Below, piece by piece: positions 3,546 through 42,354 of a stretch of 64,000 nt of DNA (within the stretch, counting starts at the first letter, position 1; every line of letters begins with the position of its first letter). The translations under genes were made by a program, and so were the position numbers. Below the pieces are notes generated by a model that saw only the letters and a list, made by a program, of their open reading frames with translations, was not told the origin of the DNA and did not search any database. Source of the DNA: Escherichia coli (lineage in GTDB: Bacteria; Pseudomonadota; Gammaproteobacteria; Enterobacterales; Enterobacteriaceae). The stretch is from the NCBI RefSeq assembly GCF_044324785.1, contig NZ_CP172127.1; one strand, written 5' to 3'.

Positions 3546-5261
3546 TTACTCCACTTCCTGCCAGTTTTTCCGCTTACTGGTTTTACCGATCCCCGGATTC
3601 ATACTGTTGGTCGGATCGTTCTCGCGATAAAACTTCTGCAACGTCTCCGGTGCTTTATACAAATGACCGACGTTATGCTCGGCAGGGTATTGCGCGCCGC
3701 GCTGCTGTAGCAGTTCCAGCATCTGTTCTTTCAACGCATGCACATCCACGCCTTTTTTAACGATGTAATCCTGATGGAAGACATAGCACATAAAATGGCC
3801 GTAATAGAGCTTGTGCACCAGTTGGCTGTCGATCTCCGGCGGTAAATGCTCATACCACTCGGTGTCGTTACGCCGCAGAGCGATATCCAGTGCCAGAATG
3901 TCTTCGACTTCATCGGAATGCACCGCCTGATAACGAATTGCTGCGCCCGCAGCGGCGAAACGGTGTAAAAACGCTTTGCTACCTTCCTCCGGCGTACAGA
4001 CAAAGAAATCGCCTTCGGCCTGTTTGAAATAATCCACCAGCCACGATTTGGCTTCACCGACGCCATCGCCCGCCATTTTTAACAGCAGATGATGTTCGTA
4101 TTTATCGCGCCAGTTTTTCATGCGCGGCGGTAAATGGCTGGGGAACAGGTGACCGAATTTTTGCATCGCACGGTCGGTAAAATGCGGACGGAAGAATTTC
4201 ACTTTCTCCAGCATCGCATCGGTGCGCCCCTTGAGATTAAAGAAGAACGGCATCTTGTCGGTGCCTAACTTATCAATCATCAGGAAGGTGTCTTTGCCGT
4301 ATTTTTCCGCAATATCGTAGATATCCCGGTGCATATATTCCCCGGCAACCGGCAGATTTTCGAAATTAGCCAGAATATGACGGCGGATTTCTGTCAGTAC
4401 TTCCGGCTGGTTGGTGCCGATATAAAACACCTGCTGATTTTTTTCCGCTTCGAAGGTATCAAGACGTACCGCAAAGACGGCCAGCTTCCCGGCGCAACCA
4501 GAAGATTCAAATAACCGATCCGGATCGGCGTTATAACGTGCGGGCGTGTCGGCTTCAATATCACGAACGCGGTGGACATAGTCATAATCGTGGGCGTGAC
4601 GACCATCGTGGCGCACATCGTCATCTTTGATGCGATCGTCATCCAGCTTGCTAAGGATCTGCTCCGGCGTTTCGCCCAGATCAATCCCCAGATGGTTCAC
4701 CAGCGTCAGTTTGCCGTCTTCATTTATACGCGCGAATAACGACATTTCGGTATACGCCGGGCCACGCTGCACCAGCGAGCCGCCGGAGTTGTTACAAATA
4801 CCGCCGATGACCGATGCGCCTATACACGATGATCCAATCACCGAGTGCGGTTCGCGTCCCAGCGGTTTGAGGGCTTTTTCCAGCGAATAAAGCGTGGTGC
4901 CCGGGTAGGCCAGCACCTGTTCGCCCTTGCCGAGAACGTGCAGCTTGTCGAGACGCAGGGTGCTGATGATCACGATATCGCGATCATAGTCGTTACCGTT
5001 TGGCGTCGATCCTTCGGTCAGGCCTGTATTGGCAGCCTGCATCAGAATAATTTTGTCGGCGGTGACGCAGGCTTTCAGCACCCGCCACAATTCCAGTAGT
5101 GAGCCAGGGAAAACGACAGCCAGCGCGTCGCCCTGACCAGAACGGAAGCCCTTGCGATAGCGGGCCGTTTTTGCGGGATCGGTGAGCAGGTGTGAATGAC
5201 CGACCAGACGGGCAAGTTCATTCAAAAAGGCTTTATTATCAGTTGTTGTCATGGAAGACAT
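3546..5261 (-). CDS. dld: FAD-dependent D-lactate dehydrogenase (membrane-associated)
   Basis: 571 aa from MSSMTTTDNKAFLNELARLVGHSHLL...; strong recollection of E. coli Dld sequence and length. Confidence 0.9.
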   Translation of the reverse strand: MSSMTTTDNKAFLNELARLVGHSHLLTDPAKTARYRKGFRSGQGDALAVVFPGSLLELWRVLKACVTADKIILMQAANTGLTEGSTPNGNDYDRDIVIISTLRLDKLHVLGKGEQVLAYPGTTLYSLEKALKPLGREPHSVIGSSCIGASVIGGICNNSGGSLVQRGPAYTEMSLFARINEDGKLTLVNHLGIDLGETPEQILSKLDDDRIKDDDVRHDGRHAHDYDYVHRVRDIEADTPARYNADPDRLFESSGCAGKLAVFAVRLDTFEAEKNQQVFYIGTNQPEVLTEIRRHILANFENLPVAGEYMHRDIYDIAEKYGKDTFLMIDKLGTDKMPFFFNLKGRTDAMLEKVKFFRPHFTDRAMQKFGHLFPSHLPPRMKNWRDKYEHHLLLKMAGDGVGEAKSWLVDYFKQAEGDFFVCTPEEGSKAFLHRFAAAGAAIRYQAVHSDEVEDILALDIALRRNDTEWYEHLPPEIDSQLVHKLYYGHFMCYVFHQDYIVKKGVDVHALKEQMLELLQQRGAQYPAEHNVGHLYKAPETLQKFYRENDPTNSMNPGIGKTSKRKNWQEVE

Positions 5262-5456
5262 TTTCCACTCCTTGTGGTGGCGAAAAAATATCACAAACTA
5301 GAATAGCGCCTTGTATGACAATTCAGCGAGTGAATATTTTGAAAATTCAGACAATAAACTGAGCATTCTTTTTCTCTCTCCACCATGCTTATGGCAAACT
5401 ACGGTTTTTGCACCATTTTCGCTGCCACGTCGGGCAACAAAGGAAGAAAAATCCAT

Positions 5457-7754
5457 ATGAAATGGCTATGTTCAGTAGGAATCGCGGTGAGTCTGGCCCT
5501 GCAGCCAGCACTGGCGGATGATTTATTCGGTAACCATCCATTAACGCCTGAAGCGCGGGATGCGTTCGTCACCGAACTGCTTAAGAAAATGACAGTTGAT
5601 GAGAAAATTGGTCAGCTGCGCTTAATCAGCGTCGGCCCGGATAACCCGAAAGAGGCGATCCGCGAGATGATCAAAGACGGTCAGGTTGGGGCGATTTTCA
5701 ACACCGTAACCCGTCAGGATATCCGCGCCATGCAGGATCAGGTGATGGAATTAAGCCGCCTGAAAATTCCTCTTTTCTTTGCTTACGACGTGCTGCACGG
5801 TCAGCGCACGGTGTTCCCGATTAGCCTCGGTCTGGCCTCGTCTTTTAACCTCGATGCGGTGAAAACGGTCGGACGTGTCTCTGCTTATGAAGCGGCAGAT
5901 GATGGCCTGAATATGACCTGGGCACCAATGGTCGATGTTTCGCGCGATCCGCGCTGGGGACGTGCTTCCGAAGGTTTTGGCGAAGATACGTATCTCACCT
6001 CAATAATGGGTAAAACCATGGTGGAAGCGATGCAGGGTAAAAGCCCGGCAGATCGCTACTCAGTGATGACCAGCGTCAAACACTTTGCCGCTTACGGCGC
6101 GGTAGAAGGCGGTAAAGAGTACAACACCGTCGATATGAGTCCGCAGCGCCTGTTTAATGATTATATGCCGCCGTACAAAGCGGGGCTGGACGCAGGCAGC
6201 GGCGCGGTGATGGTGGCGCTGAACTCGCTGAACGGCACGCCAGCCACCTCCGACTCCTGGCTGCTGAAAGATGTTCTGCGCGACCAGTGGGGCTTTAAAG
6301 GCATCACCGTTTCCGATCACGGCGCAATCAAAGAGCTGATTAAACATGGCACGGCGGCAGACCCGGAAGATGCGGTGCGCGTGGCGCTGAAATCCGGCAT
6401 CAACATGAGTATGAGCGACGAGTATTACTCGAAGTATCTGCCTGGGTTGATCAAATCCGGCAAAGTGACGATGGCAGAGCTGGACGACGCTGCCCGCCAT
6501 GTACTGAACGTTAAATATGATATGGGGTTGTTTAACGACCCATACAGCCATTTGGGGCCGAAAGAGTCTGACCCGGTTGACACCAATGCCGAAAGCCGCT
6601 TGCACCGCAAAGAAGCACGTGAAGTGGCGCGTGAAAGCCTGGTGTTGCTGAAAAACCGTCTCGAAACGCTGCCGCTGAAAAAATCTGCAACCATTGCGGT
6701 GGTTGGCCCGCTGGCAGACAGCAAGCGTGACGTGATGGGTAGCTGGTCCGCAGCCGGTGTCGCCGATCAATCTGTTACTGTGCTAACAGGGATTAAAAAT
6801 GCCGTCGGTGAAAACGGTAAAGTGCTGTATGCCAAAGGGGCGAACGTTACCAGTGACAAAGGCATTATCGATTTCCTGAATCAGTATGAAGAAGCGGTCA
6901 AAGTCGATCCGCGTTCGCCGCAAGAGATGATTGATGAAGCGGTGCAGACCGCGAAACAATCTGATGTGGTGGTGGCTGTGGTCGGTGAAGCTCAGGGGAT
7001 GGCGCACGAGGCTTCCAGCCGTACCGATATTACTATTCCGCAAAGCCAACGTGACTTGATTGCGGCGCTGAAAGCCACTGGTAAACCGCTGGTTCTGGTG
7101 CTGATGAATGGGCGTCCGCTGGCGCTGGTGAAAGAAGATCAGCAGGCTGATGCGATTCTGGAAACCTGGTTTGCGGGTACGGAAGGGGGTAATGCGATTG
7201 CCGATGTATTGTTTGGCGATTACAACCCGTCCGGCAAGCTGCCGATGTCCTTCCCGCGTTCTGTCGGGCAGATCCCGGTGTACTACAGTCATCTGAATAC
7301 CGGTCGCCCGTATAATGCCGACAAGCCGAACAAATACACTTCGCGTTATTTTGATGAAGCTAACGGGGCGCTTTATCCGTTCGGCTATGGTCTGAGCTAT
7401 ACCACTTTCACCGTCTCTGATGTGAAACTTTCTGCGCCGACCATGAAGCGTGACGGCAAAGTGACCGCCAGCGTGCAGGTGACGAACACCGGTAAGCGCG
7501 AAGGGGCGACGGTAGTGCAGATGTACCTGCAGGATGTGACGGCTTCTATGAGTCGCCCGGTGAAACAACTGAAAGGTTTTGAGAAAATCACCCTGAAACC
7601 GGGCGAAACTCAGACCGTCAGCTTCCCGATTGATATCGAGGCGCTGAAGTTCTGGAATCAACAGATGAAATATGACGCCGAGCCTGGCAAGTTCAATGTC
7701 TTTATCGGCACTGATTCCGCACGCGTTAAGAAAGGCGAGTTTGAGTTGCTGTAA
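5457..7754 (+). CDS. bglX: Periplasmic beta-glucosidase (glycoside hydrolase family 3)
   Basis: 765 aa with signal peptide MKWLCSVGIAVSLALQPALA; ATG at 5457 preceded by AAAGGAAG; GH3 two-domain architecture. Confidence 0.9.
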   Translation: MKWLCSVGIAVSLALQPALADDLFGNHPLTPEARDAFVTELLKKMTVDEKIGQLRLISVGPDNPKEAIREMIKDGQVGAIFNTVTRQDIRAMQDQVMELSRLKIPLFFAYDVLHGQRTVFPISLGLASSFNLDAVKTVGRVSAYEAADDGLNMTWAPMVDVSRDPRWGRASEGFGEDTYLTSIMGKTMVEAMQGKSPADRYSVMTSVKHFAAYGAVEGGKEYNTVDMSPQRLFNDYMPPYKAGLDAGSGAVMVALNSLNGTPATSDSWLLKDVLRDQWGFKGITVSDHGAIKELIKHGTAADPEDAVRVALKSGINMSMSDEYYSKYLPGLIKSGKVTMAELDDAARHVLNVKYDMGLFNDPYSHLGPKESDPVDTNAESRLHRKEAREVARESLVLLKNRLETLPLKKSATIAVVGPLADSKRDVMGSWSAAGVADQSVTVLTGIKNAVGENGKVLYAKGANVTSDKGIIDFLNQYEEAVKVDPRSPQEMIDEAVQTAKQSDVVVAVVGEAQGMAHEASSRTDITIPQSQRDLIAALKATGKPLVLVLMNGRPLALVKEDQQADAILETWFAGTEGGNAIADVLFGDYNPSGKLPMSFPRSVGQIPVYYSHLNTGRPYNADKPNKYTSRYFDEANGALYPFGYGLSYTTFTVSDVKLSAPTMKRDGKVTASVQVTNTGKREGATVVQMYLQDVTASMSRPVKQLKGFEKITLKPGETQTVSFPIDIEALKFWNQQMKYDAEPGKFNVFIGTDSARVKKGEFELL

Positions 7755-34101: not shown

Positions 34102-35211
34102 ATGAACGAACAATCCCAGGCCAAATCACCAGAAGCCTTGCGCGCAATGGTCGCCGGGACACTGGCCAATTTTCAGCACCCAACCCTGAAGCATAACCTC
34201 ACCACGCTGAAAGCGTTGCACCATGTCGCCTGGATGGACGACACGTTGCATGTGGAACTGGTTATGCCATTCGTCTGGCATAGCGCTTTCGAAGAGTTAA
34301 AAGAGCAATGTAGCGCCGAACTGCTGCGCATCACCGGGGCGAAAGCTATCGACTGGAAACTGTCGCACAATATCGCCACCTTAAAACGCGTGAAGAATCA
34401 GCCGGGAATTAACGGCGTGAAGAACATCATTGCGGTCAGCTCCGGTAAAGGCGGCGTGGGTAAATCCTCCACGGCGGTAAACCTGGCGCTGGCACTGGCG
34501 GCGGAAGGGGCGAAAGTCGGCATTCTGGATGCCGATATCTACGGCCCATCAATCCCCACCATGCTGGGCGCAGAAAATCAGCGTCCAACTTCGCCGGACG
34601 GTACCCATATGGCACCGATTATGTCTCATGGACTGGCAACCAATTCAATTGGTTATCTGGTCACTGACGACAATGCGATGGTGTGGCGTGGTCCGATGGC
34701 GAGCAAGGCGTTAATGCAGATGTTGCAGGAAACCTTGTGGCCGGATCTCGACTATCTGGTGCTTGATATGCCGCCAGGTACCGGTGACATTCAATTGACA
34801 CTGGCACAAAACATTCCAGTAACTGGTGCGGTAGTGGTCACCACCCCACAAGACATTGCGTTGATCGATGCGAAAAAAGGCATTGTGATGTTCGAGAAAG
34901 TCGAGGTTCCGGTGCTCGGTATTGTCGAGAACATGAGTGTGCACATTTGCAGTAACTGTGGTCACCATGAACCAATTTTCGGTACCGGTGGTGCAGAGAA
35001 ACTGGCCGAGAAATACCACACGCAGTTGCTGGGGCAGATGCCGTTACACATCTCCTTACGTGAAGATCTCGATAAAGGCACGCCAACGGTTATCAGCCGT
35101 CCGGAGAGCGAATTTACCGCTATCTACCGCCAGCTGGCTGACCGCGTTGCAGCCCAGCTTTATTGGCAGGGAGAAGTCATTCCTGGCGAGATTTCCTTCC
35201 GCGCGGTCTGA
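34102..35211 (+). CDS. apbC: Mrp/NBP35-family Fe-S cluster carrier ATPase
   Basis: 369 aa from MNEQSQAKSPEAL...; P-loop GKGGVGKSS; CxxC (CSNCGHH). Confidence 0.9.
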   Translation: MNEQSQAKSPEALRAMVAGTLANFQHPTLKHNLTTLKALHHVAWMDDTLHVELVMPFVWHSAFEELKEQCSAELLRITGAKAIDWKLSHNIATLKRVKNQPGINGVKNIIAVSSGKGGVGKSSTAVNLALALAAEGAKVGILDADIYGPSIPTMLGAENQRPTSPDGTHMAPIMSHGLATNSIGYLVTDDNAMVWRGPMASKALMQMLQETLWPDLDYLVLDMPPGTGDIQLTLAQNIPVTGAVVVTTPQDIALIDAKKGIVMFEKVEVPVLGIVENMSVHICSNCGHHEPIFGTGGAEKLAEKYHTQLLGQMPLHISLREDLDKGTPTVISRPESEFTAIYRQLADRVAAQLYWQGEVIPGEISFRAV

Positions 35212-35240
35212 CGCGTATTAACCTTTTTGGTTGTTTTTCA

Positions 35241-35281
35241 TACACCGCAGAGATGTTACATTGATGCGGTGTATTTGTTTT
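35241..35281 (+). terminator. Rho-independent terminator after apbC
   Basis: acaccgca...tgcggtgt 8-bp stem followed by atttgttttt. Confidence 0.6.
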
Positions 35282-35473
35282 TGCCGCATTAATGAACACT
35301 TATTTAATGCTGCGAATATTCTGCGGACCTTCGTCCGAAACTCTATAAAGTCGATTGATCGTACAGGCAATGCTTCATTATCATCCTTCGTGGCTGTGTA
35401 GTGGATGTACAGCTATAGTTTGTTATGCACTCATTCTATCCAGGCATAACCTTTACTACAGGGATAACGTTCA

Positions 35474-35755
35474 ATGAATAAGTACTGGCTGTCAGGAATT
35501 ATTTTTCTTGCCTATGGAATGGCTTCTCCCGCGTTCTCTTCACAGACTGCCACATTAACGATTAATGGCAGGATCAGTCCCCCAACATGCAGTATGGCTA
35601 TGGTTAATGGTCAACCTCAACAGCATTGTGGTCAGTTAACGTATGATGTTGATACCCGTCATCAGGTTTCTTCGCCAGTCAAAGGTGTAACGACAGAAGT
35701 GGTTGTTGCAGGTAGCGATAGCAAACGTCGAATCGTGTTAAATCGCTACGATTAA
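35474..35755 (+). CDS. yehE: Small secreted protein of unknown function
   Basis: 93 aa with signal peptide (MNKYWLSGIIFLAYGMASPAFS). Confidence 0.7.
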   Translation: MNKYWLSGIIFLAYGMASPAFSSQTATLTINGRISPPTCSMAMVNGQPQQHCGQLTYDVDTRHQVSSPVKGVTTEVVVAGSDSKRRIVLNRYD

Positions 35756-36050
35756 TTTGCCACCCTGGTTTTTTAATCGGATTTAGAAAGCTGAAATCAT
35801 TCGTGTGAATGATTTCAGCTTTTTTATTGATAGCAATAATGCCATTTACAAAAATCTGCATTAATTAATAGATGTGATAAATATTTAATATGCTTAAGTA
35901 TTTGTTGTATTTATATTGCAATAGTTAATTTGTTTTAAATCAATAAAACAATATGTTTACATTGCGGCAACTTTTTTGATGTGAGAAATTTGTTTCCAAG
36001 AGATACAGACTCTTAACAACCAAAAAATAAATTTTATTAAGGAACATATT

Positions 36051-36593
36051 ATGAAACGTTCAATTATTGCTGCCGCTGTCTTTTCTTCTTTTTTTATGAG
36101 CGCCGGGGTATTTGCCGCAGACGTTGATACCGGAACATTAACCATTAAAGGAAATATTGCAGAATCTCCGTGTAAATTCGAAGCGGGTGGCGATTCAGTA
36201 AGTATTAATATGCCAACTGTACCAACCACTGTCTTTGAAGGTAAAGCTAAATACTCGACCTATGATGATGCAGTCGGTGTAACCAGCAGCATGTTAAAAA
36301 TTAGCTGTCCGAAAGAAGTTGCTGGTGTAAAACTCTCGTTGATTACCAACGATAAAATAACCGGAAACGATAAGGCGATAGCCAGTAGCAACGATACCGT
36401 GGGGTACTATCTCTATTTAGGTGATAACAGCGATGTCCTGGATGTTTCTGCACCTTTTAATATTGAGAGTTATAAAACAGCGGAAGGTCAATATGCTATT
36501 CCGTTTAAAGCAAAATACCTGAAGCTGACAGATAATTCAGTGCAATCAGGTGATGTGTTATCTTCTCTGGTTATGCGTGTGGCGCAGGATTAA
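36051..36593 (+). CDS. yehD: Fimbrial major subunit (chaperone-usher pilin)
   Basis: 180 aa, signal peptide, pilin-like Cys pair, C-terminal beta-strand; AAGGAA SD. Confidence 0.85.
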   Translation: MKRSIIAAAVFSSFFMSAGVFAADVDTGTLTIKGNIAESPCKFEAGGDSVSINMPTVPTTVFEGKAKYSTYDDAVGVTSSMLKISCPKEVAGVKLSLITNDKITGNDKAIASSNDTVGYYLYLGDNSDVLDVSAPFNIESYKTAEGQYAIPFKAKYLKLTDNSVQSGDVLSSLVMRVAQD

Positions 36594-36629
36594 TAAATAA
36601 AACTTCAAGTTTCTCCAGGTAATAAACAT

Positions 36630-36660
36630 GGCCGCTATCCCCATGGCGGCCTTTTAATTT
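36630..36660 (+). terminator. Intra-operon hairpin after pilin gene
   Basis: ggccgc-tatccccatg-gcggcc followed by ttttaattt. Confidence 0.55.
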
Positions 36661-36673
36661 AAGAGGCATTAAG

Positions 36674-37348
36674 ATGAAAGGATTATTTGCTTTACTCATT
36701 TCTTCTATGGTCCTTCCTGCACATGCCGGTATTGTTATCTACGGGACGCGTATTATTTACCCGGCAGAAAATAAAGAAGTGATGGTGCAGTTGATGAATC
36801 AGGGAAACCGTTCTTCGCTGCTGCAGGCGTGGATTGATGATGGTGATACGTCGTTACCACCAGAAAAAATTCAGGTTCCTTTCATGTTAACGCCACCAGT
36901 GGCAAAAATAGGGGCAAATTCCGGGCAGCAAGTAAAAATCAAAATTATGCCGAATAAACTGCCCACTAATAAAGAGAGCATTTTTTATCTGAATGTTCTG
37001 GATATTCCACCAAATAGTCCAGAGCAAGAGGGCAAGAATGCACTGAAATTTGCAATGCAAAACAGAATCAAATTGTTTTACCGGCCTGCGGGTATTGCAC
37101 CGGTAAATAAAGCGACATTTAAAAAATTACTGGTAAATCGCAGTGGCAATGGATTGGTGATAAAAAATGACTCAGCAAATTGGGTGACGATTTCGGATGT
37201 CAAAGCTAATAATGTCAAAGTCAATTATGAAACTATTATGATTGCCCCCTTAGAAAGTCAGAGTATTAATGTCAAAAGTAATAATGCGAATAACTGGTAT
37301 CTGACCATTATCGATGACCATGGCAACTATATTAGTGACAAAATTTAA
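36674..37348 (+). CDS. yehC: Periplasmic fimbrial chaperone (PapD-like)
   Basis: 224 aa; signal peptide; AAGAGG SD at 36661-36666. Confidence 0.85.
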   Translation: MKGLFALLISSMVLPAHAGIVIYGTRIIYPAENKEVMVQLMNQGNRSSLLQAWIDDGDTSLPPEKIQVPFMLTPPVAKIGANSGQQVKIKIMPNKLPTNKESIFYLNVLDIPPNSPEQEGKNALKFAMQNRIKLFYRPAGIAPVNKATFKKLLVNRSGNGLVIKNDSANWVTISDVKANNVKVNYETIMIAPLESQSINVKSNNANNWYLTIIDDHGNYISDKI

Positions 37349-37363
37349 TTGCAGGAGCTGCCT

Positions 37364-39844
37364 ATGTTGAGAATGACCCCACTTGCATCAGCAATCTTAG
37401 CGTTATTGCTCGGCATTGAAGCTTATGCAGCTGAAGAAACCTTTGATACCCATTTTATGATAGGTGGAATGAAAGACCAGCAGGTTGTAAATATTCGTCT
37501 TGATGATAATCAACCCTTGCCGGGGCAGTATGACATCGATATTTATGTCAATAAGCAATGGCGCGGGAAATATGAGATTATTGTTAAAGACAACCCGCAA
37601 GAAACATGTTTATCAAGGGAAATTATCAAGCGGTTAGGCATTAATACCGATAACTTTGCCAGCGGTAAGCAATGTTTAACATTTGAGCAACTTGTTCAGG
37701 GTGGGAGCTATACCTGGGATATCGGAGTTTTTCGTCTCGATTTCAGTGTCCCGCAGGCGTGGGTGGAAGAACTGGAAAGTGGCTATGTTCCACCGGAAAA
37801 CTGGGAGCGGGGTATTAATGCGTTTTATACCTCTTATTATGTGAGTCAGTATTACAGCGACTATAAAGCGTCGGGTAATAGCAAGAGTACATATGTACGT
37901 TTTAACAGCGGGTTAAACTTACTGGGGTGGCAACTGCATTCTGATGCCAGTTTCAGTAAAACAAATAGCAATCCAGGGGTGTGGAAAAGCAATACCCTGT
38001 ATCTGGAACGTGGATTTGCCCAACTTCTCGGCACGCTTCGCGTGGGTGATATGTACACATCAAGCGATATTTTTGATTCTGTTCGCTTCAGCGGTGTGCG
38101 GTTGTTTCGTGATATGCAGATGTTGCCTAACTCGAAACAAAATTTTACTCCACGGGTGCAGGGGATTGCTCAGAGTAACGCGCTGGTAACTATTGAACAG
38201 AATGGTTTTGTGGTTTATCAGAAAGAGGTTCCTCCTGGCCCGTTTGCGATTACAGATTTGCAGTTGGCCGGGGGGGGAGCGGATCTTGATGTCAGCGTGA
38301 AAGAGGCGGACGGTTCGGTAACCACCTATCTGGTGCCTTATGCAGCGGTGCCAAATATGCTGCAACCCGGCGTGTCGAAATATGATTTTGCGGCGGGTCG
38401 TAGCCATATTGAAGGGGCGAGCAAACAAAGTGATTTTGTTCAGGCGGGTTATCAGTATGGTTTTAATAACTTATTGACGCTGTATGGCGGATCGATGGTC
38501 GCGAATAATTATTACGCGTTCACTTTGGGGACTGGCTGGAATACACGCATTGGTGCCATTTCCGTCGATGCCACGAAGTCGCATAGTAAACAAGACAACG
38601 GCGATGTGTTTGACGGGCAAAGTTATCAAATTGCCTACAACAAATTTGTGAGCCAAACGTCGACGCGTTTTGGTCTGGCGGCCTGGCGTTATTCGTCGCG
38701 TGATTACCGGACATTTAATGATCACGTTTGGGCAAACAATAAAGATAATTATCGCCGTGATGAAAACGATGTCTATGACATTGCCGATTATTACCAGAAC
38801 GATTTTGGCCGTAAAAATAGCTTCTCTGCCAATATGAGCCAGTCATTGCCAGAAGGCTGGGGTTCTGTGTCCTTAAGTACGTTATGGCGAGATTACTGGG
38901 GGCGTAGCGGCAGCAGTAAGGATTATCAGTTGAGTTATTCCAACAACCTGCGACGGATAAGCTATACCCTCGCGGCAAGCCAGGCTTATGACGAGAATCA
39001 TCATGAAGAGAAACGTTTTAATATTTTTATATCGATTCCCTTTGATTGGGGGGATGACGTTACGACGCCTCGTCGGCAAATATATATGTCTAACTCAACG
39101 ACGTTTGATGATCAGGGGGTTGCCTCAAATAATACGGGATTATCGGGAACCGTTGGAAGCCGGGATCAATTTAACTATGGGGTCAACCTGAGTCATCAGC
39201 ATCAGGGAAATGAAACGACAGCTGGAGCGAATTTAACCTGGAACGCGCCGGTGGCAACGGTGAATGGCAGTTATAGTCAGTCGAGTACTTATCGACAGGC
39301 TGGAGCCAGTGTTTCAGGGGGCATTGTCGCTTGGTCGGGTGGCGTTAATCTGGCGAACCGTCTTTCCGAAACGTTTGCTGTGATGAATGCGCCAGGAATT
39401 AAAGATGCTTATGTCAATGGGCAAAAATATCGCACAACAAACCGTAATGGAGTGGTGGTATACGACGGAATGACACCTTATCGGGAAAATCACCTGATGC
39501 TGGATGTGTCGCAAAGCGATAGCGAAGCAGAATTACGTGGCAACCGGAAAATTGCCGCCCCTTATCGCGGCGCGGTTGTACTGGTTAATTTTGATACCGA
39601 TCAGCGCAAGCCCTGGTTTATAAAAGCATTAAGAACGGATGGGCAACCATTAACGTTTGGTTATGAAGTCAATGATATCCATGGTCATAATATTGGCGTT
39701 GTCGGCCAGGGAAGCCAGTTATTTATTCGCACCAATGAAGTACCGCCATCGGTTAATGTAGCAATTGATAAGCAACAAGGACTTTCATGCACAATCACCT
39801 TCGGTAAAGAGATTGATGAAAGTAGAAATTATATTTGCCAGTAA
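37364..39844 (+). CDS. yehB: Outer membrane fimbrial usher
   Basis: 826 aa from MLRMTPLASAILALLLGIEAYA; ATG at 37364 after GCAGGAG; track ORF starts at upstream TTG. Confidence 0.85.
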   Translation: MLRMTPLASAILALLLGIEAYAAEETFDTHFMIGGMKDQQVVNIRLDDNQPLPGQYDIDIYVNKQWRGKYEIIVKDNPQETCLSREIIKRLGINTDNFASGKQCLTFEQLVQGGSYTWDIGVFRLDFSVPQAWVEELESGYVPPENWERGINAFYTSYYVSQYYSDYKASGNSKSTYVRFNSGLNLLGWQLHSDASFSKTNSNPGVWKSNTLYLERGFAQLLGTLRVGDMYTSSDIFDSVRFSGVRLFRDMQMLPNSKQNFTPRVQGIAQSNALVTIEQNGFVVYQKEVPPGPFAITDLQLAGGGADLDVSVKEADGSVTTYLVPYAAVPNMLQPGVSKYDFAAGRSHIEGASKQSDFVQAGYQYGFNNLLTLYGGSMVANNYYAFTLGTGWNTRIGAISVDATKSHSKQDNGDVFDGQSYQIAYNKFVSQTSTRFGLAAWRYSSRDYRTFNDHVWANNKDNYRRDENDVYDIADYYQNDFGRKNSFSANMSQSLPEGWGSVSLSTLWRDYWGRSGSSKDYQLSYSNNLRRISYTLAASQAYDENHHEEKRFNIFISIPFDWGDDVTTPRRQIYMSNSTTFDDQGVASNNTGLSGTVGSRDQFNYGVNLSHQHQGNETTAGANLTWNAPVATVNGSYSQSSTYRQAGASVSGGIVAWSGGVNLANRLSETFAVMNAPGIKDAYVNGQKYRTTNRNGVVVYDGMTPYRENHLMLDVSQSDSEAELRGNRKIAAPYRGAVVLVNFDTDQRKPWFIKALRTDGQPLTFGYEVNDIHGHNIGVVGQGSQLFIRTNEVPPSVNVAIDKQQGLSCTITFGKEIDESRNYICQ

Positions 39845-39859
39845 TAGTCAGGTGGTTCT

Positions 39860-40894
39860 ATGAAAATTCGCATAATGCTATTTATATTAATGATGATGGT
39901 TATGCCTGTGAGCTATGCGGCATGTTATAGTGAGTTATCTGTTCAGCACAATTTGGTTGTTCAGGGGGATTTTGCACTTAGTCAAACACAAATAGCGACA
40001 TATGAGCATAATTTTAATGATTCGTCATGCGTGAGTACAAATACTATCACCCCTATGAGCCCATCGGATATTATTGTTGGACTTTATAACGATACCATTA
40101 AATTAAATTTACATTTTGAATGGACCAATAAAAACAACATCACGTTGTCAAATAATCAGACCAGTTTCACCAGTGGTTATTCGGTAACGGTGACACCTGC
40201 GGCCAGTAATGCAAAAGTGAATGTTTCTGCGGGGGGCGGCGGTTCAGTGATGATTAATGGTGTTGCGACATTATCCAGTGCTTCATCATCGACACGCGGG
40301 AGTGCTGCAATACAATTTTTACTGTGTTTATTCGGTGGCAAGTCATGGGATGCATGTGTAAATAGCTACAGAAATGCATTGGCACAAAATGCAGGTGTCT
40401 ATTCCTTTAATCTGACATTGTCATACAACCCGATAACCACAACCTGCAAACCGGACGATTTATTAATTACTTTAGAGAGTATTCCCGTTTCACAATTACC
40501 AGCCACAGGTAACAAAGCAACAATAAATAGTAACAAAGGGGATATTGTTCTGCGTTGTAAAAACTTATTAGGTCAACAAAATCAAACATCACGGAAAATG
40601 CAGGTGTATTTATCAAGTTCTGACTTGTTAAACAACAGCAACACGATACTTAAAGGTGCAAAAGATAATGGCGTAGGATTTGTTCTTGAAAGTAATGGTT
40701 CGTCAGTCACACTTTTAAATATCACTGACAGCAGTAAAGGATACACAAATTTAAAAGAAATTGCGGCGAAGTCAAAACTTACAGATACAACGGTTTCAAT
40801 TCCGATAACAGCCAGTTACTACGTCTACGATACAAACAAAGTTAAATCTGGCGCACTGGAGGCAACCGCATTAATCAACGTGAAATACGACTAA
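39860..40894 (+). CDS. yehA: Fimbrial tip adhesin-like subunit
   Basis: 344 aa, signal peptide, Ser/Thr/Asn-rich two-domain fimbrial-like protein. Confidence 0.8.
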   Translation: MKIRIMLFILMMMVMPVSYAACYSELSVQHNLVVQGDFALSQTQIATYEHNFNDSSCVSTNTITPMSPSDIIVGLYNDTIKLNLHFEWTNKNNITLSNNQTSFTSGYSVTVTPAASNAKVNVSAGGGGSVMINGVATLSSASSSTRGSAAIQFLLCLFGGKSWDACVNSYRNALAQNAGVYSFNLTLSYNPITTTCKPDDLLITLESIPVSQLPATGNKATINSNKGDIVLRCKNLLGQQNQTSRKMQVYLSSSDLLNNSNTILKGAKDNGVGFVLESNGSSVTLLNITDSSKGYTNLKEIAAKSKLTDTTVSIPITASYYVYDTNKVKSGALEATALINVKYD

Positions 40895-40950
40895 TAACAA
40901 GCAAGACGAGCAAGTGGCTAATAATAAAAAATAATAAGGTGTCTGCATTT

Positions 40951-40977
40951 CCCCCTCATGATGAGGGGGCTTTTCTT
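40951..40977 (+). terminator. Rho-independent terminator after yehA
   Basis: ccccctcat-g-atgaggggg followed by cttttctt. Confidence 0.7.
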
Positions 40978-41314
40978 AGCGATGATAAAAAATCTCACCG
41001 TCGTAGGCTTTAATGATTTTACCGTCGGTGTCGCTGATCAACACGTATGCGCCACCCATATAGGTCCAGTGCGTTCCGGCATCAGGCGCGGGCAGATTAC
41101 GTAACTGCCACTGCTTAATGTTGTACTCATCGGTGCGGTACATCTCTGGGACGGTATCGCCTGGTTTGAAATGCTTAAAGTCAGCAATGAAACTGCTTAA
41201 CTCATACTTAGAAATTCCCGAGGTATTGGTCGAACCCGCGGTGGCTGGTGCGGCCCAGGCGGCACTGGTAACCAGCAAAAGCACACCCAGCAACATCTTA
41301 TTTTTAATGGTCAT
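40976..41314 (-). CDS. rcnB: Periplasmic nickel/cobalt homeostasis protein
   Basis: 112 aa from MTIKNKMLLGVLLLVTSAAWA; track ORF extends 180 nt upstream. Confidence 0.8.
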   Translation of the reverse strand: MTIKNKMLLGVLLLVTSAAWAAPATAGSTNTSGISKYELSSFIADFKHFKPGDTVPEMYRTDEYNIKQWQLRNLPAPDAGTHWTYMGGAYVLISDTDGKIIKAYDGEIFYHR

Positions 41315-41532
41315 AAACTCTCCACTTTGGGGATCTGTAATATCAGTCGCATATCTTTCCTGCCATACAATATAACTGACAAGCGATATTTTGTTAGTGA
41401 TCCCATGATTTCGTAAAAAGTGTAAATGAAAGGATGCCCTAAAAGCATCCTTAGCGAGCAGAGAGTCAGCGGAAATAGCTGATTTAAGAATCATCCTGGG
41501 CTGAAGATAACATGCAAGCCTAAAGGATTGAG

Positions 41533-42354
41533 TTATCGCATTATGCCCATAAAGCCATGCACACCCATATACACACCAACTAAGCCAATCAACAGACTGG
41601 AAAAATAGGGGGCGCGTTTAGCGAGAGTGTTAAATCCGCTCCAACGTTTTGCGACCTGCTGAACGCTGATTGCTGCGCCAACGCCTACGGTGACCAGCGT
41701 TAACGCCAGGCCGATGCTGAAACTGACGACCAGTGTTGCGCCCAGTGTCAGGGCTTTCAACTGAATGCAAATCAACAGCACGGTAATTGCTGCCGGGCAG
41801 GGGATAAGGCCACCGGTTAAGCCAAATAACAAAATTTGCCAGTTGGTGACCTCTCTACCATCAAAGCGTCGTTTAATGTCATTGGCATGGGCTCGTGCAT
41901 GAGCATCCTGATACTCCCCATGTTCGTGATGGTGATGATGTCCATGGTCGTGGTGATCTTCGTGATCGTGATGATGCTCATGATCATGCCCGTGCATATT
42001 CTCCAGCCAGTTGCGTTCGCCGCGCCAGGTACGCCAGAACATCCAGAACGCGGTGCCAATAATGATCACCGCGGAAATCAACTGGAGCCACGGTTCCGCC
42101 GACTGCGCAGTAAAGCGTTTGCTGATCACCATCCCGCCAAAGGCAATCAACCAGACCACTGCGGTATGCGAAATGGTTGCTGCCAGTCCGAGCATCACCG
42201 CCTGTTTAATGGTGCCTTTGATGGCGATGATAAACGCCGCCATCATCGTTTTTGAGTGCCCTGGTTCCAGGCCATGAAGCGCACCAAGTAAGATGGCGCT
42301 GGGGATGAAGAACCAGGCGTTTCCTTGCTGAAGAAGAGTGGTAAATTCGGTCAT
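41533..42354 (-). CDS. rcnA: Nickel/cobalt efflux permease with histidine-rich loop
   Basis: 273 aa membrane protein; HGHDHEHHHDHEDHHDHGHHHHHEHGEYQDAHARAH loop. Confidence 0.9.
   Translation of the reverse strand: MTEFTTLLQQGNAWFFIPSAILLGALHGLEPGHSKTMMAAFIIAIKGTIKQAVMLGLAATISHTAVVWLIAFGGMVISKRFTAQSAEPWLQLISAVIIIGTAFWMFWRTWRGERNWLENMHGHDHEHHHDHEDHHDHGHHHHHEHGEYQDAHARAHANDIKRRFDGREVTNWQILLFGLTGGLIPCPAAITVLLICIQLKALTLGATLVVSFSIGLALTLVTVGVGAAISVQQVAKRWSGFNTLAKRAPYFSSLLIGLVGVYMGVHGFMGIMR

Follow-up and report, generated by a model that had tools for sequence, protein, structure and literature searches.

The chaperone-usher fimbrial operon yehDCBA of Escherichia coli K-12 (b2111–b2108) has been described as a cryptic operon that appears in two H-NS regulon datasets and is up-regulated 3.6-fold on over-expression of SlyA (PMC5797941). 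It is also counted among the poorly expressed and H-NS-repressed operons of Korea et al. 2010, as far as that study is cited in PMC5797941. Over-expression of BolA raises yehD and yehC (PMC4337573), and the yeh locus lies within an extended protein-occupancy domain (bioRxiv 10.1101/2024.06.20.599902). Tet-on expression of the O157:H7 Sakai genes yielded thin, flexible filaments of the gamma-4 type, which were imaged by electron microscopy (PMC7098969). The present study concerns this operon in a 64,000-nucleotide (nt) stretch of E. coli DNA (contig NZ_CP172127.1; the whole stretch is referred to below as the window). Positions 36051–40894 of the window are an intact yehDCBA chaperone-usher fimbrial operon of E. 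coli, a system described before, with the same genes, gene order, gene sizes and flanks as in K-12 and with intergenic regions that differ from those of K-12 by few substitutions. The published properties of K-12, namely repression by H-NS, induction by SlyA and BolA, and gamma-4 morphology, should carry over to the window.

Among related systems, stcABCD of Salmonella enterica is the positional orthologue of yeh and lies at the same chromosomal site, following apbC and yehE. The two have in common an upstream block with an inverted repeat and a hairpin after the pilin gene, and the best NCBIfam match of YehC is StcB. In contrast, the sequence of the stc hairpin is unrelated to that of yeh, with the tails AGUUAAUC in S. 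arizonae and AAUUUUUUU in S. diarizonae, and the stc pilin is only about 30–34% identical to YehD. The stc promoter is relatively active among the fimbrial promoters of S. Typhi (PMC5809473). Placement in the gamma-4 clade (Yeh/Stc/Yad) is taken from the literature (PMC7098969, PMC5809473) and is reflected here only in the StcB-like chaperone match and in the synteny with Salmonella.

In the pap (papA) and CFA/I (cfaB) operons, as in yeh, a stable stem-loop stands directly after the major-subunit gene and before the assembly genes. Such stem-loops or partial terminators after the major subunit are expected to leave the pilin message in excess. For both systems, differential levels or decay of the pilin mRNA are reported in studies cited in PMC5927463 (refs 11, 12 and 36: Baga 1988, Jordi 1993, Bricker and Belasco 1999), as far as these are summarized there. 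Unlike in pap, no upstream regulator gene or RNase E processing site equivalent to that of papB–papA was identified in the yeh sequence. The promoters of the cryptic operons elf/ycb, sfm and yad resemble that of yeh in their low GC content, high TpA content, poor laboratory expression and counter-silencing by SlyA (PMC5797941). The yeh operon differs from these in that the cross-genus conservation of its promoter-proximal 100 bp far exceeds that of the downstream pilin gene, a pattern not to be expected if the DNA were simply AT-rich and of foreign origin.

Based on gene content, base composition, RNA folding and comparison with related loci, the window likely contains an intact gamma-4 yehDCBA operon whose transcription has its own start in a conserved block, which is embedded in DNA that H-NS could coat, and whose hairpin after the pilin gene serves as a device for pilin excess. 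The features concerned are the following:

35474..35755, plus strand: yehE, encoding a 93-amino-acid secreted protein (DUF2574; Pfam PF10836, 172.7 bits; annotated yehE in K-12 and in strain N3).
35785..35832, plus strand: predicted intrinsic terminator of yehE, with a 16–18-bp stem, a GUGU loop and a U6 run (folding, inverted repeat, covariation).
35833..35898, no strand assigned: variable, very AT-rich spacer (identity of 0.36–0.55 per 20-nt bin to 14 non-Escherichia loci).
35899..36000, plus strand: conserved promoter/operator-like block of about 100 bp (74–86% identity to Salmonella, Citrobacter and Superficieibacter).
35930..35951, no strand assigned: perfect inverted repeat TTGTTTTA-N6-TAAAACAA, a candidate protein-binding site (unique in the window, 0.02 expected by chance).
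36039..36044, plus strand: Shine–Dalgarno sequence of yehD, AAGGAA (read from the sequence; AAGGA is invariant in the cross-genus alignment).
36051..36593, plus strand: yehD, major pilin, 180 amino acids (PF00419 Fimbrial, 31.2 bits against a cutoff of 25.6; annotated yehD).
36630..36660, plus strand: hairpin 36630–36651 with its UUUUAAUUU tail (terminator scan, folding, conservation).
36661..36666, plus strand: Shine–Dalgarno sequence of yehC, AAGAGG, left unpaired by the hairpin (from the sequence; invariant across Escherichia except for TAGAGG in the E. coli-labelled allele L004).
36674..37348, plus strand: yehC, periplasmic chaperone, 224 amino acids (PapD_N and PapD_C).
37364..39844, plus strand: yehB, outer-membrane usher, 826 amino acids (PapC_N, Usher and PapC_C).
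39860..40894, plus strand: yehA, putative two-domain tip adhesin, 344 amino acids (PF00419 at residues 184–344, 80 bits).

The identity and gene order of the operon, which had been recognized correctly in a preliminary description made from the sequence alone, are borne out by the Pfam domains and by the RefSeq annotation of matching genomes, including K-12 b2108–b2111. The gene products comprise a PapD-like chaperone, a PapC-type usher and subunits with the Fimbrial domain. YehC contains PF00345 (E 3e-41) and PF02753 (E 3.1e-08), and YehB contains PF13954, PF00577 (651.7 bits) and PF13953 and scores 1752.6 bits against NCBIfam NF011763, for which the cutoff is 933. YehA matches NF011788 with 676 bits, and YehD scores 112.7 against the NCBIfam YehD equivalog, which is under the cutoff of 136. 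The 5.6-kb yehE/D/C/B/A segment has a match in 5423 of 5426 complete E. coli genomes, with the yehE/D/C/B/A annotation in all of them; the allele of the window is uncommon, since 15 of these 5423 genomes are at least 99% identical to it over the 5.6 kb. In RefSeq, the gene order in K-12 is rcnR-rcnA-rcnB-yehABCDE-mrp-metG, and the window has the same arrangement on the opposite strand, flanked by apbC/mrp at one end and by rcnB-rcnA-rcnR at the other. The window carries intact copies of all four operon genes. The 80-nt gap between yehD and yehC is the only long one within the operon, while yehC–yehB and yehB–yehA are each separated by 15 nt. The genome that matches the window best, that of strain N3 (99.7% identity), has yehB and yehA annotated as pseudogenes with frameshifts (positions 3965–7493 of locus L002).

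The AT-rich region that had been noticed upstream of yehD corresponds exactly to the interval between the yehE stop codon and the yehD start codon (35756–36050; 295 bp), with a GC content of 25.4%; the window as a whole has 50.1% and the operon 42.6%. It is the lowest-GC 295 bp of the 64 kb; 0.08% of 295-bp segments are as low, and all of these overlap this spot. TpA steps occur at twice the average of the window, and eight A/T tracts of at least 4 nt are present against 3.3 expected. Intergenic DNA of 25% GC is the kind of sequence that H-NS and StpA coat, and the GC minimum and doubled TpA content found here are in keeping with an H-NS-silenced locus. The description of the whole interval as a leader, on the other hand, is unsupported. 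The interval is a composite in which roughly the first 77 nt belong to the yehE terminator and the last 150 nt or so to the conserved promoter/operator-like block, with the variable spacer between them. Its length is nearly constant, at 272–295 nt in most loci. No plausible small open reading frame was found on the plus strand of the interval, and folding of the yehD 5' region (35985–36065) gave no significant RNA structure (z −0.69). An Rfam scan of 35000–41600 at E ≤ 1 identified no known RNA family; the matches of SurC and mir-3618 to the yehE hairpin were rejected because they are at chance level and far under the gathering score.

The hairpin at 35785–35832 lies inside the supposed leader and had been missed there, despite being much stronger than the post-pilin hairpin that was reported. 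Formed by a perfect 16-nt inverted repeat, it folds with 17–18 pairs and a free energy (dG) of −23.5 kcal/mol (z −6.4), and none of 200 shuffled sequences was as stable. An alignment of 16 loci from four genera shows that pairing persists at 7 of 14 pairs despite substitutions in both arms, and that most loci retain the T-run; between K-12 and the window, two compensatory double changes are found in the stem. By these sequence criteria, the structure is predicted to be the intrinsic terminator of yehE. The same structure bears on the alternative that yehEDCBA is a single operon, in which the 295 bp would be transcribed as an intercistronic leader, with the yehE hairpin as a second attenuator. 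This arrangement accords with the position of yehE, which is on the same strand and always adjacent, with the name 'yehEDCBA' used in one paper (bioRxiv 10.1101/2024.06.20.599902), and with the construct that gave visible fimbriae, which began at the yehE start codon (PMC7098969). However, the yehE hairpin with its U6 run is the strongest terminator-like structure of the region and is maintained by covariation, the strongest conservation lies downstream of it, as expected of a separate promoter, and the SlyA and H-NS studies list yehDCBA without yehE (PMC5797941). A single yehEDCBA operon is accordingly regarded as unlikely, and the sensible reading of the interval would be a distinct promoter for yehD, with a specific operator, in DNA that H-NS can coat, rather than a 295-nt transcribed leader. 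Within the yehE terminator, the outer stem covaries freely across genera, and the AT-rich inner stem (ATCATT-N4-6-AATGAT) is fixed in sequence; this conserved inner stem hints at a second role, for example as a recognition site for a protein or an RNA. A weak terminator-like hairpin of 11 pairs, only three of them G-C, was also observed upstream of yehE in the apbC–yehE gap (35390–35416).

Downstream of the spacer, conservation is high from about position 35899 to the yehD start codon, and the bins covering 35901–36000 are 74–86% identical across genera. In the same loci, the pilin protein shows 27–39% identity in most cases and 60–64% in two. Positions 35912–35915, 35940–35943, 35945–35950 and 35956–35964 are invariant, and an invariant GTTTACATTGCGG is also found within the block. 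The inverted repeat TTGTTTTA-N6-TAAAACAA is exact in 20 loci from four genera. The cross-genus conservation of the block together with this perfect repeat suggests that a specific regulator may also act there. To our knowledge, the consensus sites of TyrR, CRP, OmpR, CpxR, Lrp, Fis, IHF and Fur provide no convincing fit to the inverted repeat or to the neighbouring motifs. The sole promoter-like match of the region in the promoter scan, TTGATA-17-AAAAAT (35827–35855, 9/12), falls in the non-conserved spacer, and the scan overall returned fewer sites than were found in shuffled sequences. In the non-Escherichia loci (window compared with L008–L037), apbC is about 93–98% and the upstream non-coding block 74–86% identical while the pilin of most loci is at the low level given above, which suggests that the pilin may be under diversifying selection.

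Many fimbrial operons phase-vary, and the AT-rich region could be imagined as a switch, either Pap-like (Dam/Lrp) or fim-like (invertible), all the more as two perfect inverted repeats of 9–10 nt are present (35822–35831/35939–35948 and 35832–35840/36063–36071). Such a switch is highly improbable here. The interval 35756–36050 contains no GATC, of which a Pap-like switch needs two, no recombinase gene is located nearby, and the left arms of both repeats are unconserved, even in K-12 or E. coli E69. These bracketing repeats are probably chance matches in AT-rich DNA.

The proposal that nucleoid proteins silence the operon agrees with its published status as a cryptic member of the H-NS regulon (PMC5797941) and is not new. 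Likewise, electron microscopy after forced expression, which had been put forward as a check, has already been published (PMC7098969).

Between the pilin and chaperone genes, the presence of a hairpin with a T-tract was confirmed, as a stem-loop at 36630–36651 followed by UUUUAAUUU. The stem-loop, GGCCGCUAU-CCCC-AUGGCGGCC, consists of nine pairs (six of them G-C) and a 4-nt loop and is followed by UUUUAAUUUAA. Its folding energy is −15.7 kcal/mol (z −3.3), and none of 200 shuffled sequences was as stable. Its tail has four U followed by AA; it passes the terminator scan but is weaker than the yehE terminator. That scan is unenriched overall (3 sites in 6.4 kb; shuffled sequences gave 5.6 ± 2.3), and the significance of the hairpin derives not from its match to the pattern but from its conservation and from its location in the one long gap between the genes. 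A terminator discriminant, whose values are indicative only, scored the yehD hairpin at +13.5 and the yehE terminator at +28.5. The hairpin is single-copy and its sequence is unique in the window; its identification as a dispersed repeat was rejected on this ground. The intact E. coli loci that were examined share an identical stem, and their loop is CCCC, CUCC or CCC, the last being the loop of K-12. All four E. coli-labelled alleles that were analyzed for the tail have UUUU right after the stem, which continues as UUUUAAUUU in most and as UUUUAACUC in L004. The spacing from the hairpin to the yehC start codon is fixed at 21–23 nt in Escherichia. In one further E. coli locus (DETEC-P61, L086, positions 1525–1600), a copy of the insertion sequence IS1 is inserted exactly within the hairpin, at GGCCG/GGTAATGACTCC; yehC, yehB and most of yehA are deleted, and yehD is left between two IS1 copies.

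To place this hairpin among related operons, one genome per species was scanned for relatives of YehC, which provided 76 loci with an identifiable upstream pilin gene, and a hairpin right after the pilin stop codon was called strong at dG ≤ −12. Strong hairpins are present in 67 of the 76 loci, including all 34 of the close relatives. The threshold is reached by 65 of 73 real gaps and by 27 of 73 coding controls of equal length, with median energies of −17.9 and −10.2 kcal/mol, respectively (Wilcoxon p = 6e-11). Within Escherichia, 97% of the cells of the comparison are paired, and two pairs show compensatory changes from G-C to A-U. The U-tract is not conserved together with the stem: it follows 15 of the 67 strong hairpins and is found in 12 of the 34 close relatives, and the 22 without it include all non-coli Escherichia. 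E. albertii, E. whittamii, E1V33 and MOD1-EC7003 keep the hairpin with the tails GCAUAAAU or AUAUGAAU. As judged from these comparisons, the conserved device of the family appears to be the stem-loop and not a terminator, and the E. coli version looks like a partial or moderate terminator.

These counts also give weight to the alternative that the post-pilin hairpin is an RNA-stability or processing element only, which would block 3'-to-5' exonucleases after cleavage or after downstream Rho-dependent termination and would not itself terminate transcription. The nearest Escherichia species lack the U-tract entirely, and the precedents of puf, pap and CFA/I concern decay rather than termination (PMC5927463). 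On the other side, all four E. coli-labelled alleles keep UUUU and score as terminators in both the scan and the discriminant, and termination and stabilization are not exclusive. A role in stability alone is possible, if rather doubtful. The earlier interpretation of the hairpin as an attenuator that maintains pilin excess fits the E. coli sequence. Only 12 of the 34 close relatives, however, have a U-tract; transcript stabilization would for this reason be at least as likely as the conserved function. For the E. coli hairpin, a stoichiometry device that may act partly by termination and partly by 3'-end protection is favoured, in line with the differential mRNA stability described for pap and CFA/I (PMC5927463).

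The annotation of yehC raises a further alternative, in which the hairpin has no function and is either coding sequence of a longer YehC or a chance palindrome. In K-12, yehC is annotated with 239 amino acids (L001 6927–7646, corresponding to 36629–37348 of the window), which is 15 codons longer and runs through the hairpin, because the 3-nt loop CCC, one nucleotide shorter than the CCCC of the window, puts an upstream ATG in frame. In the window, this frame is closed by TAA, and it contains no start codon before 36674. The 224-amino-acid form, which the Prokaryotic Genome Annotation Pipeline calls in other strains, has the ribosome-binding site AAGAGG and a normal signal peptide, and its residues 1–224 align end to end with positions 1–224 of the StcB model. 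The compensatory changes and the positional conservation of the hairpin speak against chance. A functionless hairpin is very improbable, and the 239-amino-acid K-12 YehC is probably over-extended at its start, the 224-amino-acid form fitting better.

Taken together, a possible course of expression can be proposed for the operon. Transcription of yehE would end at its own strong intrinsic terminator (35785–35832), and transcription of yehD would most likely start somewhere within 35899–36000, not at 35756. H-NS and StpA could coat the AT-rich interval, and a specific regulator may act in addition at the conserved block. In E. coli, the UUUU-tailed hairpin may act as a moderate intrinsic terminator and stop a fraction of the polymerases; it could also protect the yehD transcript against exonucleases attacking its 3' end. 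In this way, the stem-loop at 36630–36651 would lower the message for the chaperone, usher and adhesin relative to that for the pilin. On the read-through transcripts, yehC could be translated from the unpaired AAGAGG 22 nt downstream, and yehB and yehA would follow across the 15-nt gaps.

Several points weigh against this scheme. The U-tract of the E. coli hairpin is broken after four U, and the hairpins of the sister species, to go by their tails, could not be classical terminators. A published map of E. coli 3' ends has no entry for yehD, yehC or yehE, and a literature search for 3'-end, start-site or half-life data on yeh found none. No convincing sigma-70 promoter was found in the conserved block, either by the scan or by eye; the candidate −35 and −10 elements picked by eye (TTTACA, TTGCGG and TGTGAGAAA/T) were rejected on account of unacceptable spacing. 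Loss of the occupancy domain alone did not induce yehDCBA (bioRxiv 10.1101/2024.06.20.599902), and a yeh promoter fusion in O157:H7 was active in static lysogeny broth, with higher activity at 28 °C (Low et al. 2006, cited in PMC7098969). The lack of induction on occupancy loss means that H-NS does not explain everything, and it fits the need for a specific activator. Laboratory silence holds for K-12 in standard culture and is not absolute.

YehE itself is encoded directly upstream of the pilin gene, in synteny with apbC, in Escherichia, Salmonella, Citrobacter and Superficieibacter. Residues 1–42 are homologous to the N-terminus of the pilin in a profile–profile comparison (hhalign 96.8%, E 2.7e-10); BLASTP of YehE against YehD gave no significant match (E 0.51), and the homology comes from the profile–profile comparison only. 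The protein has a signal peptide and a C-terminus (IVLNRYD) that resembles the C-terminus of YehA (INVKYD), and it is too short for a full pilin. AlphaFold2 prediction of YehE with 18 orthologues gave a poor model (mean predicted local distance difference test score of 60.6, predicted template modelling score of 0.28), and a literature search found nothing on the protein.

At the other end of the operon, one further structure was found:

40951..40979, plus strand: operon-end hairpin of eight pairs, six of them G-C, with the tail CUUUUCUUAG (terminator scan and folding).

Its G5/C5 hairpin (40951–40969) lies between the convergent genes yehA and rcnB and folds on both strands, with a U-rich tail on the yehA strand only; it starts 56 nt past the yehA stop codon, and its end is 6 nt short of the stop codon of rcnB. 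In E. whittamii (L022) and Escherichia sp. E1V33 (L024), a second, paralogous operon is present elsewhere, with a chaperone 55–57% identical to YehC. These paralogous operons are without yehE, the linkage to apbC and the inverted repeat, and a hairpin after the pilin gene is still present.

Published work already covers the operon, its cryptic status, its repression by H-NS and its capacity to form fimbriae, and an AT-rich region and a hairpin are ordinary for operons of this kind. The by-products of the analysis are a corrected regulatory region as a concrete target in the search for the signal that turns on Yeh/Stc fimbriae, evidence that many chaperone-usher operons conserve a stem-loop, rather than a terminator, after the pilin gene, a start codon of yehC that is probably wrong in the K-12 reference annotation, and a lead on the DUF2574 protein YehE. 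Only the operator-like block and the mini-pilin YehE are leads worth following up. Tentatively, the block at 35899–36000 may be the operator of a regulator encoded elsewhere that has controlled Yeh/Stc since before the split of Escherichia, Salmonella, Citrobacter and Superficieibacter, and the separately terminated yehE, encoding a 'mini-pilin', may itself function in the system, for instance as a modulator of assembly. The operon would then be conditionally regulated and not merely cryptic.

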